Notes under the pieces: model-generated | Seen by the model: the letters and a program-made list of their open reading frames with translations, nothing else | What the model was told of the DNA's origin: nothing | The model's database searches: none | Made by a program: the position numbers and the translations under genes | Virus record (IMG/VR): IMGVR_UViG_3300012664_000092 | Location: 1 to 34,654 of that record | Length of the DNA: 34,654 nucleotides | Origin: a virus | Direction: 5' to 3' (one strand) | Shown here: positions 6,907 through 9,747 of the stretch, piece by piece | Numbering within the stretch: the stretch's first letter is position 1 | Layout: each line of letters begins with the position of its first letter

Positions 6907-7190
6907 TTGGTCAAAACGCAATAACTAAAGCAACTCAGGATGTAATCGTAGTGGTGGGCCTTAATCCATCATGGTTTGATGGTAAAGACCAAGGCGATAT
7001 TCCTATGGTCTATACCCAAAAGTCACGACCTAAACCTAATGACCTTGCAATCCTTAAAGGCAAAAGAGTTCAGTTGATTCATGGCAAAGCTACGGATGAA
7101 GTGTTTGCAAGATGGTATGCAGAGATTGTGAATACAATGCCTAGCCAACTTGTAGCTATGGATTCTGAAGGAGAAATATTTTGCTCATAA
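6903..7190 (+). CDS. Hypothetical replication-module protein
   Basis: 95-aa ORF with an ATGA overlap to the upstream gene. No motif recognised. Confidence 0.55.
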   Translation: MIGQNAITKATQDVIVVVGLNPSWFDGKDQGDIPMVYTQKSRPKPNDLAILKGKRVQLIHGKATDEVFARWYAEIVNTMPSQLVAMDSEGEIFCS

Positions 7191-8092
7191 CTGAGGATAT
7201 TGACTTTGATGCTTACCGGGAAGCGGAGAATATTCGTAACCGAGTTAGGGAAAAGTCAGAGTTTACCGATGAAATAAACCATTACTTTGCCACTAGGATG
7301 TACGGCATAGATGGGGATAAATTGCCTTGGCGTAAGTGTGACCAACTCATAGGATTTAGAAAAGCTGAGGTCAGTATTTGGGCTGGTGAGAATGGCTCAG
7401 GTAAGTCTTTAATGCTTGGTCAGCTCAAGCTAGGATTGTTGGCTCAGAATAAAAAGGTGCTTACTGCCAGCTTAGAAATGCAGCCTTACAAAACACTTGC
7501 TCGAATGGCTAGACAAGCAACTGGTCAGCCAATACCCTCTAAAAACGATATAGAGGCGTTTTCAGCGTGGAAAATGGATAGGGGATACCTGTATGACCAT
7601 GTGGGTCGTTTAGAGCCTTGGCAAGCCGTTGCTCTGTGCCGTTACGCTTCCAAAGAATTAGGCATCCAGCACCTGATTATTGACTCCATGATGAAGTGTG
7701 TGCGAGGTGAGGATGACTATAACGGTCAGAAAGACTTTGTAGATGCTCTTTGTGATGTAGCCAAAGAAACGCAACTTCATATTCATTTGGTTCATCACCT
7801 TAGAAAGTCCGGTGAAGGGGACAAGATTGCTGAAAAAAAGGACATTAAAGGCTCAGGGATTATTACCGACCTTGTAGACAATGTTTTTTTGGTGGCTAGA
7901 AACCGCAAAAAAGAGAAGGAAACAGAAGTAAACATGATTCCTGATAACACTAAGCCTGATACCTTTTTGGTTTGTGCAAAGCAGCGTAATGGTGAGTGGG
8001 AAGGTACTTTAGGGTTTTGGTACGAGAAAAGAAGCCTGCAATTTACAGAAGAATTTGGCTTGCCAATGACTAATTTTTTGGAGATTAAATGA
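7181..8092 (+). CDS. DnaB-family (RecA-fold) replicative helicase, C-terminal ATPase domain only
   Basis: TTG start with GAAGGAGA 7 nt upstream. Walker A GENGSGKS, Walker B LIIDS, and HIHLVHHLRKSGEGD typical of DnaB/Twinkle-like helicases. Confidence 0.8.
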   Translation: MLITEDIDFDAYREAENIRNRVREKSEFTDEINHYFATRMYGIDGDKLPWRKCDQLIGFRKAEVSIWAGENGSGKSLMLGQLKLGLLAQNKKVLTASLEMQPYKTLARMARQATGQPIPSKNDIEAFSAWKMDRGYLYDHVGRLEPWQAVALCRYASKELGIQHLIIDSMMKCVRGEDDYNGQKDFVDALCDVAKETQLHIHLVHHLRKSGEGDKIAEKKDIKGSGIITDLVDNVFLVARNRKKEKETEVNMIPDNTKPDTFLVCAKQRNGEWEGTLGFWYEKRSLQFTEEFGLPMTNFLEIK

Positions 8093-8931
8093 ATGAGTTG
8101 GCTCTTTTCGCAGGTGCTGGTGGAGGAATACTTGGGGGCAAATTGCTTGGATGGAGAACCGTCTGTGCAGTCGAATGGGAAGCCTATCCAGCTTGTGTAC
8201 TTGCAGCAAGACAAAATGACAAAATTCTCCCGCCTTTCCCGATTTGGGATGATGTTCAAACCTTTGACGGAAAGCCTTGGCGAGGAATTGTTGATGTCAT
8301 ATCGGGAGGATTTCCTTGTCAAGACATTAGTGCAGCCGGGAAAGGTGGAGGAATTGAAGCCGAAAGAAGTGGAATGTGGCGAGAGATGGCAAGGATTATT
8401 GGCGAGATTAGACCAAGTTACGCTTTTGTGGAAAATTCCCCAATGCTCACTATTAGAGGACTCGGAACAGTCCTTAGAGATTTGGCCACGCTTGGGTACG
8501 ATGCGGAATGGTGTGTGCTGGGAGCAGCCGATGTTGGAGCAAATCACCAAAGAGACAAAATTTGGATTGTTGCCCAACGGAATGACATTTTTTCATACTC
8601 CGAACACGACCGGGCTAGATGGAGGCAGCAACTCTCGGAAAGCTCTAAAGAAAAGAATGGAATCATTCCCAACTCCAAACACCGGGATGTATCGCAATCT
8701 GAATTACGACAAGGAACTGTGCATAAAGCGAGCAGAGAAACATCAAACCGATTTGGCGATGGTATCGGTAATGCAATTTGGTGGAAGTCTGAACCCGGAG
8801 TGGGTAGAGTGGCTGATGGGATGGCCGACAAAGTGGACAGAATTAAAGCCCTTGGAAACGGACAAGTGCCTCTCTGTGCAGCAACAGCTTGGAATATCTT
8901 AATTGAAAGGTTAGAAAATGGAAGAAATTAA
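8089..8931 (+). CDS. DNA (cytosine-5)-methyltransferase, compact phage type
   Basis: Ordered motifs: I LFAGAGGG, IV GGFPCQDIS (catalytic Cys at 8317-8319), VI FVENSP, VIII HQRDKIWIVA, X DRIKALGNGQVP. Confidence 0.9.
   Translation: MNELALFAGAGGGILGGKLLGWRTVCAVEWEAYPACVLAARQNDKILPPFPIWDDVQTFDGKPWRGIVDVISGGFPCQDISAAGKGGGIEAERSGMWREMARIIGEIRPSYAFVENSPMLTIRGLGTVLRDLATLGYDAEWCVLGAADVGANHQRDKIWIVAQRNDIFSYSEHDRARWRQQLSESSKEKNGIIPNSKHRDVSQSELRQGTVHKASRETSNRFGDGIGNAIWWKSEPGVGRVADGMADKVDRIKALGNGQVPLCAATAWNILIERLENGRN
8093..8902 (+). CDS. Fully overlapping +1-frame ORF inside the C5-methyltransferase gene (269 aa); candidate overprinted gene
   Basis: ATG at 8093 lies 4 nt after the methyltransferase ATG and shares its GGAG. 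It is open for 269 codons with protein-like composition. Motifs: MSWLFSQ, WPRLGTMRNG, FHTPNT/FPTPNT, LNPEWVEWLMGWPTKWT. Confidence 0.45.
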   Translation: MSWLFSQVLVEEYLGANCLDGEPSVQSNGKPIQLVYLQQDKMTKFSRLSRFGMMFKPLTESLGEELLMSYREDFLVKTLVQPGKVEELKPKEVECGERWQGLLARLDQVTLLWKIPQCSLLEDSEQSLEIWPRLGTMRNGVCWEQPMLEQITKETKFGLLPNGMTFFHTPNTTGLDGGSNSRKALKKRMESFPTPNTGMYRNLNYDKELCIKRAEKHQTDLAMVSVMQFGGSLNPEWVEWLMGWPTKWTELKPLETDKCLSVQQQLGIS

Positions 8932-9256
8932 TCCGAACGCAGCAGTAGACTTTTTGCTTAAAAACGCTGGATTGTTTGCTAAAGCTAAAGCAGATAGAAT
9001 TTATTTAGACGAATTTCGCAAGTCAAAACGAGCTTTACTCATGCAAGAAGCTTTTTTTGCAGGAGTGGACACCATAGCTGGTCAGGAAAGAGACAGTCTT
9101 GCTCATTCAGAATATCGAGCATTACTAGATGGTCTTAAAGTGGCAGTAGAAACTGAAGAAAAACTTAAATGGCAAATGACAGCAGCCCAACTCCGTGTAG
9201 AAATTTGGAGAACTTTACAGGCAAATAATCGACTTATAGACAAGGCTACTCAATGA
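8918..9256 (+). CDS. Conserved hypothetical phage protein, 112 aa, helical
   Basis: ORF with an ATG. AKAKADRIYLDEFRKSKRALLM resembles a recurrent phage family of unknown function (from memory). Confidence 0.6.
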   Translation: MEEINPNAAVDFLLKNAGLFAKAKADRIYLDEFRKSKRALLMQEAFFAGVDTIAGQERDSLAHSEYRALLDGLKVAVETEEKLKWQMTAAQLRVEIWRTLQANNRLIDKATQ

Positions 9257-9747
9257 ACCAAAATCTAGTAAAAGACTTGTTTGAATACAAAAATGGCAGT
9301 TTGTATTGGAAAGTATCTTTAAATCAAAAAATAGCTATTGGGTCAAAAGCTGGAAGTATTGATAAACATGGGTATGTAAACATACAAATAAACAAACAAA
9401 AACATAAGGTTCATAGATTGGTGTTTTTATATCATCATGGTTATTTGCCAAAAGAAATTGACCATATTGACAATGACAAAACTAACAACAATATTGAAAA
9501 TTTACGCCCAGCATCTCGTTCAGAAAACATGAAAAACATGGGATTTCATAGCAAAAACAAATCAGGAGTTAAAGGTGTAAGTTGGCACAAAGCAAGTAAT
9601 AGGTGGACTGTGCAGCTTATGGTTAATAACAAAAAAACATACTTTGGAATTTACAAAGACATAGAACTAGCTGAATTGGTAGCACAAGAAGCTAGAAACA
9701 AATATCACAAGGAGTTTGCAAATCATGGCAATTTTTACATTATCTGA
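9253..9747 (+). CDS. HNH homing endonuclease with an AP2 DNA-binding domain
   Basis: HRLVFLYHHGYLPKEIDHIDNDKTNNNIENLR (HNH_3), then SGVKGVSWHKASNRWTVQL...YFGIY (AP2). Confidence 0.85.
   Translation: MNQNLVKDLFEYKNGSLYWKVSLNQKIAIGSKAGSIDKHGYVNIQINKQKHKVHRLVFLYHHGYLPKEIDHIDNDKTNNNIENLRPASRSENMKNMGFHSKNKSGVKGVSWHKASNRWTVQLMVNNKKTYFGIYKDIELAELVAQEARNKYHKEFANHGNFYII

Follow-up and report, generated by a model that had tools for sequence, protein, structure and literature searches.

A phage gene whose two fully overlapping reading frames probably encode the subunits of a C5-cytosine DNA methyltransferase

The stretch of viral DNA analysed here, referred to as the window, is the whole of the IMG/VR record IMGVR_UViG_3300012664_000092 (positions 1 to 34,654; 34,654 nucleotides (nt)), and the comparison of related sequences together with the analogy to known split enzymes indicates that two fully overlapping frames at its positions 8089-8931 probably encode the two subunits of a C5-cytosine DNA methyltransferase. 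The two open reading frames (ORFs), which like all their parts described below are on the plus strand, are ORF A (8089..8931, 280 amino acids (aa)), the proposed alpha subunit with the large domain of a C5-cytosine methyltransferase, and ORF B (8093..8902, 269 aa), the proposed beta subunit, which is read in the +1 frame relative to A and by its coordinates lies entirely inside it, for an overlap of 810 nt. Judged by its relatives, the pair is a real, strongly conserved set of fully overlapping genes, and the two ORFs look like complementary parts of one enzyme and not like unrelated proteins.

Under the proposed mechanism, alpha would form the catalytic large domain, composed of motifs I-VIII, a disordered linker and motif X, and the C-terminal half of beta would supply a variable target-recognition region and motif IX, that is, the small DNA-recognition domain. 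Ribosomes at a single GGAG, or ribosomes terminating on the TGA of an upstream helicase gene within the sequence ATGAATG, would initiate at either ATG, and both chains would come from one message. The alpha and beta chains would assemble into an active enzyme, as the chains of the heterodimeric methyltransferase M.EcoHK31I do. We infer that both ORFs are translated, that the heterodimer forms and that activity depends on both chains, and the N-terminal 159 residues of beta, which are under constraint, may contribute to binding alpha. Only this N-terminal half of beta and the linker of alpha look overprinted, and both products probably represent pieces of a single ancestral enzyme.

Results

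Both frames are kept open across distant relatives

The comparison drew on 245 related loci, of which bacterial genomes, viral contigs and metagenomes contributed 80 each and annotated phages a few. Complete loci with the double start [A/G/T]TGnATG were scored, and the pair was counted as open where the frames end within 120 nt of each other. By this definition both frames are open in 190 of the 196 complete double-start loci, which come from phages and prophages with hosts as varied as Pseudomonas, Acinetobacter, Burkholderiales, Planctomycetota, Verrucomicrobiota and Saccharibacteria. Among these open relatives the identity of ORF B falls as low as 30%, and even where the variable region has gained up to about 150 codons neither frame is closed. 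The remaining frames of the 184 unique genes are not maintained in this way, with an average of 18 stops per gene in the +2 frame and 5-9 in the three antisense frames. A comparison of the +1 frame with codon-shuffled controls, suggested in a sequence-only reading of this stretch that had singled out the ORF pair, bears the second gene out: synonymous shuffling predicts 2.67 stops per sequence in the N-terminal half of B (0.38 over A residues 2-52 and 2.29 over residues 53-160) and none is observed in 184 sequences. The converse holds for the linker of alpha, where 2.99 stops per sequence are expected and the same 184 sequences contain 0.

The sequence-only reading had also worried that a stop-poor opposite strand might signal a compositional artefact, a concern that the relatives dispel. 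The two minus-strand ORFs across the helicase/methylase junction (7795-8577, 260 aa, and 8544-8831, 95 aa) were rejected as candidate genes; they are not conserved in relatives and, on that comparison, are chance products of composition.

Loci with one frame broken are rare. B is truncated at 143 codons in L150 (1501-1932) and A at 40-165 codons in L048, L034, L080 and L068, and decay of the copy, a sequencing error or a variant with a single product could account for them. In a prophage of E. coli PCP07014 (L248, 1000-1780) both frames are interrupted at about 1365-1373, where PGAP calls a pseudogene with an internal stop; a joint loss of the two products would be expected to leave such a pattern.

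The start region appears to serve both frames

A GGAG resembling a Shine-Dalgarno (SD) sequence (8080..8083) precedes the A start by 5 nt and the B start by 9 nt, and this single element appears to serve both start codons, which stand in tandem as ATGAATG (8089..8095; A start 8089, B start 8093) in the context GGAG(8080-8083)ATTAAATGAATGAG. The TGA embedded in ATGAATG, at 8090-8092, is the stop codon of the upstream ORF (7181..8092), a DnaB-like helicase (PF03796, E 1.4e-11). The sequence-only reading had described the same layout, and its coordinates and lengths for the two ORFs, their +1 offset on one strand, the 4-nt spacing of the ATGs, the distances to the GGAG and the helicase stop all stand, the last with the Pfam match.

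Start-region statistics were derived from the 184 unique loci, a set chosen because the B ATG follows the A start codon by 4 nt. G is enriched at positions -9..-5 relative to the A start (G 0.48-0.73), and the typical distance of this G-rich SD is 3-5 nt to the A start and 7-9 nt to the B ATG. In these loci A begins with ATG in 62%, GTG in 21% and TTG in 17% of cases (38% non-ATG), while B starts at this position with ATG in about 230 and with GTG in about 8 of 246 loci. The embedded TGA is present in 182 of the 184, and the upstream ORF terminates on it in 80. Both frames are probably fed by one ribosome-binding site or by termination-reinitiation.

The first frame carries a catalytic core with an apparent spacer

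ORF A matches PF00145 (E 4.6e-31, 108.9 bits, cut-off 22) and phrog_363 (E 4e-67), and it has at least 8000 homologues, with PF00145 in all among the matches listed. The C5-methyltransferase motifs I, IV, VI, VIII and X occur in order as FAGAGGG (8107-8127), GFPCQ (8308-8322), ENS (8431-8439), QRDKIW (8548-8565) and, again in the alpha frame, GNGQVP (8854-8871). The PF00145 match is restricted to profile positions 4-219 of 324, and a profile of the A family matches M.HhaI only over residues 16-174 (E 1e-15), in an alignment that ends directly after motif VIII. With the Pfam and PDB alignments stopping at this point, the target-recognition domain and motif IX that belong between VIII and X are absent from the ORF A chain. 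The complete motif set that the sequence-only reading had credited to this frame is thereby qualified, in that motifs I, IV (with PCQ), VI, VIII and X are present but the recognition domain and motif IX are missing.

Conservation along alpha falls into three parts. Residues 1-162 (8089..8574) hold motifs I-VIII and have a mean pairwise identity of 0.65-0.98 in the 184 loci; residues 163-230 (8575..8778) form a polar linker with many gaps and an identity of 0.10-0.25; and residues 231-275 (8779..8913), the pre-X segment and motif X (WWKSEPGVGRVADGMADKVDRIKALGNGQVP...), return to 0.58-0.90. The linker is rich in S/R/G/Q/E/N/K, variable in length and unconserved across the 184 loci. Because similarity stops after motif VIII and residues 163-230 are unconserved, ORF A looks like a large domain with a spacer in the place of the small domain. 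Set against frame B, the linker is an out-of-frame reading of beta's putative recognition domain, and on the proposed reading it is a disordered segment that needs only to stay free of stops. An AlphaFold2 model of A (73 sequences) is of low confidence, with a predicted local distance difference test score (pLDDT) of 46, a predicted template modelling score (pTM) of 0.49 and a pLDDT of about 26-34 in the linker, and a Foldseek search with this low-confidence model returns M.HhaI and M.HaeIII as top matches.

The second frame carries a recognition-like region and a candidate motif IX

A database search with ORF B returned 6972 homologues at E<=1e-3, full length and mostly unnamed, with identities of 44-76% among the 120 matches listed. 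The remark in the sequence-only reading that strings of this frame recur in other proteins is thus well founded. ORF B also matches phrog_1008 (E 1.3e-21) and phrog_26627 (E 1.6e-12) in PHROG, and there are zero Pfam or NCBIfam matches.

Residues 1-159 of beta (8093..8569), with MSWLFSQ..., RFGMMFKPLTE, QCSLLED and WPRLGTMRNG, are overprinted on motifs I-VIII of alpha. Residues 160-228 (8570..8776; FFHTPNTTGLDGGSNSRKALKKR, FPTPNT) form a variable region resembling a recognition domain, in which F167 and H168 are invariant and T169, P170 and D176-R182 are conserved at >=90%. Over the nucleotides of the alpha linker ORF B conserves FFHTPNTTGLDGGSNSRKALKKR, one or more xPTPxx units and DGG, arranged around a segment of variable length. 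The variable region spans 31 to 181 codons among relatives, and the length of the alpha linker tracks it. The region at 8570-8776 is also mosaic: pairs of genes that are 95-98% identical in the N-terminal half of alpha share only 48% aa identity there, which suggests that a recognition module is frequently swapped between otherwise near-identical genes.

The variable region is followed by the strongly conserved LNPEWVEWLMGWPxxWT, hereafter the LNP motif. The stretch LNPEWVEWLMGWPTKWTELKPLETDK (beta residues 233-258, 8789..8866), whose nucleotides read EPGVGRVADGMADKVDRIKALGN in the alpha frame, is assigned to motif IX, since LNPEWVEWLMGWPTKWT fits the motif IX shape L.P......LMG[FWY]P..[FWY]; the assignment rests on this pattern, on where the stretch lies relative to motif X when relatives are collinear, and on analogy. 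With beta residues 226-269 as query, 4299 clusters at 50% identity were retrieved, and most of the 150 clusters listed are proteins (49-442 aa) that end in the LNP motif or have it close to their C-terminus, a position that, by sequence, is as expected for beta-type products.

The frames constrain each other to different degrees along the gene

Flanking genes served as the neutral control; 4-fold degenerate sites of B in the recognition region were not accepted as a clock because that region is mosaic, and A residues 261-275, considered as a non-overlapped control, were rejected since the tail of B overlaps most of them. Over A residues 1-160 pairwise identity is 0.65-0.98 for A and 0.35-0.85 for B; over residues 161-230 it falls to 0.10-0.25 for A and is higher for B at anchor positions; and over residues 231-260 it is 0.58-0.90 for A and 0.69-0.88 for B. 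Where the flanking genes of a phage pair are saturated (0.27), 4-fold sites in the N-terminal half of A are still 0.69 identical, and the suppression of synonymous change in the first frame that the sequence-only reading had looked to is hence present. At equal aa identity (0.75-0.85) the 4-fold identity is 0.56-0.65 in A against 0.35-0.41 in its neighbours, and along beta residues 1-159 it amounts to 0.46-0.82 in A, compared with 0.29 after codon shuffling and 0.27-0.41 in the flanking genes.

Shuffling codons within sequences gives an A 4-fold identity of 0.293 +/- 0.006 where 0.467 is observed, and a B aa identity of 0.294 +/- 0.004 where 0.416 is observed. As both values exceed the shuffled expectation, the N-terminal half of B is constrained beyond merely staying open. 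The alpha linker, on the other hand, puts no detectable constraint on the 4-fold sites of B (0.296 versus a random expectation of 0.291). In the motif IX/X region the 4-fold identity is 0.77-0.93 for A and 0.45-0.69 for B. On this sequence evidence about 80 nt (8789-8866) are truly dual-coding, with LNPEW...KPLE in B and EPGVGRVA...RIKALGN in A, and because both frames are conserved there the DNA at 8789..8866 keeps an identity of 74-81% even with a Lacticaseibacillus phage and with C72C1.

Relatives with other layouts link the C-terminal half of B to the same enzyme

In phage C72C1 (L246, 826-1653) and Lacticaseibacillus phage R9.1 (L247, 800-1651) the alpha gene encodes 275 or 283 aa, and a +1-frame ORF nested within it starts close to motif IV, spans 191 or 201 aa and has LNPxWVEWLMGYPxGWT at its end. 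Both frames of the window align with those of R9.1 (E 1e-39 for alpha and 9e-11 for beta residues 70-250), and the two-frame design is therefore older than the divergence of the window and R9.1.

A different division is found in two chromosomal copies in Paraburkholderia caffeinilytica (L070, 2851-4086, and L078), where the alpha ORF ends after motif VIII (209 codons) and a +1-frame ORF of 411 codons has a B-like N-terminal half, the recognition region, the LNP motif and then PRMAQMKVPHRAKRIEALGNGQVP in one frame, with beta still overlapping all of alpha. In these copies, as in proteins P0241 and P0248, the LNP motif is followed in one frame by PRVxxGxxxRxxRLKAIGNGQVP, which is the canonical order of IX and then X, and in P0315 motifs I-VIII, the recognition region and the LNP motif are in a single chain. 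These collinear variants place the LNP motif where motif IX belongs and tie the C-terminal half of B to the same enzyme. P0248 is a metagenomic protein of 442 aa and of beta type in which the LNP...GWT / W..DPALDGSTPRVT module is duplicated in tandem before motif X; this may be a two-specificity variant or an assembly artefact.

Neighbouring genes and annotation

Downstream, an ORF of 112 aa (8918-9256) starts 14 nt before the alpha stop and has no Pfam match; a homologue of it comes after the methylase in about 49 related loci. The start of the following ORF (9253-9747) overlaps the preceding stop, and with matches to HNH_3 (E 1.7e-16) and AP2 (E 5.4e-06) it is likely a homing-endonuclease-type gene.

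Annotation of these loci generally retains a single frame. GenBank has one coding sequence (CDS) each at the C72C1 and R9.1 loci, in the alpha frame, named DNA methyltransferase in C72C1 and hypothetical protein in R9.1, and the records examined, four for phages in GenBank and one for E. coli in RefSeq, list just alpha or one CDS that is unnamed. The Joint Genome Institute (JGI) called frame A on the 34654-nt contig matching the window (P0121), and on two related contigs, L001 (10001-10839) and L002 (1528-2591), it called frame B together with a 29-aa tail ORF that is alpha's motif X end. Some B-type proteins are named 'DNA (cytosine-5)-methyltransferase 1' by JGI despite having no Pfam domain.

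Discussion

The reading of 8089-8931 as a split methyltransferase has to be weighed against a second frame that encodes something else. ORF B could be an independent overprinted protein unrelated to methylation, such as a regulator or an anti-defence factor, with alpha alone acting as the methyltransferase, and the N-terminal half of beta does have the profile of such a protein: it is constrained yet without a Pfam, NCBIfam or PDB match or a confident fold, and classical viral overprinting yields just such orphan proteins. On its own, however, alpha has no conserved segment between motifs VIII and X able to recognise DNA, while the C-terminal half of B carries the conserved anchors of a variable region and the LNP motif, which relatives have collinear in a single chain with motif X or motifs I-VIII. 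The linker of A, moreover, follows the length of the variable region of B. An independent protein is accordingly improbable as an account of the whole of ORF B; an unrelated second protein is unlikely for the C-terminal half and possible as an added role of the N-terminal half.

A single canonical chain might instead be produced by a programmed double frameshift, +1 after motif VIII and -1 between IX and X, which would leave the full-length ORFs incidental. Splicing A(1-162)+B(160-249)+A(250-280) does give the canonical motif order, a T6 run lies just past motif VIII in the window (8589-8594), and a homopolymer of >=6 follows motif VIII in 34 of 121 loci. Such a homopolymer is nevertheless missing from 72% of loci and a -1 slippery heptamer between IX and X occurs in only 3 of 165, and no conserved slippery site was found at either frame junction in these sets (165 loci for IX-X and 121 after VIII). 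Frameshifting also needs no open 5' half of B, no open linker in A and no B ATG placed 4 nt after the A start, all of which are conserved, and one chain cannot hold motif IX and the pre-X segment in full because both use the same nucleotides. M.EcoHK31I functions as two chains (PMC2836561). The frameshift is for these reasons very improbable, and of the two options raised by the sequence-only reading, the genuine same-strand overprinted pair is upheld by the open frames, the 6972 homologues of B and the suppressed synonymous change, while the frameshift-linked isoforms are not.

Least credible is that ORF B is a non-coding artefact, produced by composition or by the strong conservation of nucleotides that a methyltransferase gene shows. 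The antisense frames of the window are rather stop-poor (3-12 stops), and much of the N-terminal conservation of beta is forced by the conserved residues of alpha, but only the +1 frame is open across the 184 unique loci and its openness survives large indels and the lowest B identities. B is also more conserved than A between residues 160 and 250, and its aa identity lies above that of the codon shuffle. The comparative sequences contradict a compositional artefact and exclude it.

Several results weigh against the two-subunit enzyme itself. A PDB search found nothing with ORF B alone and only a chance match at E 0.3 with a profile of 83 B sequences, and hhalign of the B profile against an M.HhaI sequence whose N-terminal part agrees with the profile match gave a probability of 0.1%. 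Pfam searches with a hand-made A(1-162)+B(160-249)+A(250-280) chimera, the Paraburkholderia beta and IX-X fragments yielded nothing beyond profile position 220, and given this lack of extension Pfam cannot see motifs IX and X of this clade in any frame. AlphaFold2 assigned B (83 sequences) no confident fold (pLDDT 42.8, pTM 0.17), and assembly is neither supported nor tested by the low-confidence models of A and B, which are too poor to be of use beyond showing the linker of A as unmodelled. The suppression of synonymous change could in principle owe something to recent horizontal transfer of the methylase gene relative to its neighbours. Finally, the recognition-like anchors of the window are in beta and the alpha reading of the same nucleotides is unconstrained, unlike M.EcoHK31I, where the predicted recognition domain is in alpha.

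The two-subunit methyltransferase remains the probable reading, and an extension of it can be put forward more tentatively, with the balance leaning slightly the other way. The locus may be a long dual-coding gene in which the N-terminal segment of beta, of ~160 residues, is new, was overprinted on the catalytic core and is selected for a job of its own, with ATGnATG as a dedicated co-initiation device. If so, that job might be clamping beta onto alpha, setting the subunit ratio or an activity unrelated to methylation, and few conserved same-strand dual-coding genes known from phages and bacteria would be as long (about 810 nt, with relatives reaching about 1.1 kb).

Gene callers retain a single frame at each locus, and a required subunit of a very common phage methylase would then be routinely missing or labelled hypothetical; if the split enzyme is real, one subunit is absent from the annotation of thousands of phage and prophage genomes. 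A codon-optimised or recoded version of the annotated gene would lose beta and probably activity, whereas cloned native DNA keeps both. With about 10^4 natural sequences, the family shows two frames constraining each other to degrees that differ along one gene, with zones where a catalytic core lies over a new peptide, where a recognition domain lies over a junk linker and where about 80 nt encode two conserved motifs. The collinear and short-nested relatives may trace the origin of the overlap, and the swapping of recognition regions in beta suggests that specificity can be switched with the catalytic subunit untouched. Naturally split methyltransferases already serve as scaffolds for targeted methylation (PMC2836561).

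Comparison with known systems

In the literature searched, the coverage of which is limited, no description of this arrangement as a widespread phage family was found. Among the closest known systems, M.EcoHK31I of E. coli HK31 (YGGCCR) is a heterodimeric C5 methyltransferase (Lee, Kam and Shaw 1995, via PMC2836561 and PMC3404938) in which alpha has motifs I-VIII plus X as well as the predicted recognition domain, beta has motif IX and both are needed. Its beta gene is wholly inside the alpha gene in another frame of the same strand, and part of the N-terminus of beta is dispensable in vitro, with further deletion weakening the association with alpha (PMC2836561, PMC3404938). The window is alike in that its beta ORF lies within the alpha gene, in another frame of the same strand, as in 190 of 196 loci, and in that alpha has I-VIII and X. 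Compared by description, the two differ in that beta of the window is co-extensive with alpha (269 versus 280 aa) and starts 4 nt after it behind the same SD, where that of M.EcoHK31I starts at an internal site, and in that the window gene is within a phage replication module with no restriction enzyme seen adjoining. The nested betas (191-201 aa) of C72C1 and R9.1 look closer to the M.EcoHK31I layout than does that of the window.

In M.AquI of Synechococcus sp. PCC 7002 (CYCGRG), alpha has motifs I-VIII and beta has the rest of the variable region, IX and X, and the chains must assemble (PMC3404938). The same division is seen in the Paraburkholderia copies, with I-VIII in alpha and the recognition region, IX and X in beta. 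The window differs from M.AquI in having motif X in alpha and in its co-extensive ORFs, an arrangement not described for M.AquI (PMC3404938). With the monomeric M.HhaI and M.HaeIII the window shares the catalytic core, and the order I-VIII, recognition domain, IX and X is recovered when its frames are read in turn; the small domain, part of the single chain in these enzymes, would be encoded in the +1 frame here. Classical overprinted viral gene pairs (reviewed in PMC8227390) resemble the window in their long same-strand overlap, suppressed synonymous change and a second-frame protein that has no known fold in the overprinted half. Such pairs combine an old protein with a de novo accessory protein, whereas the products of the window are probably parts of one ancestral enzyme.

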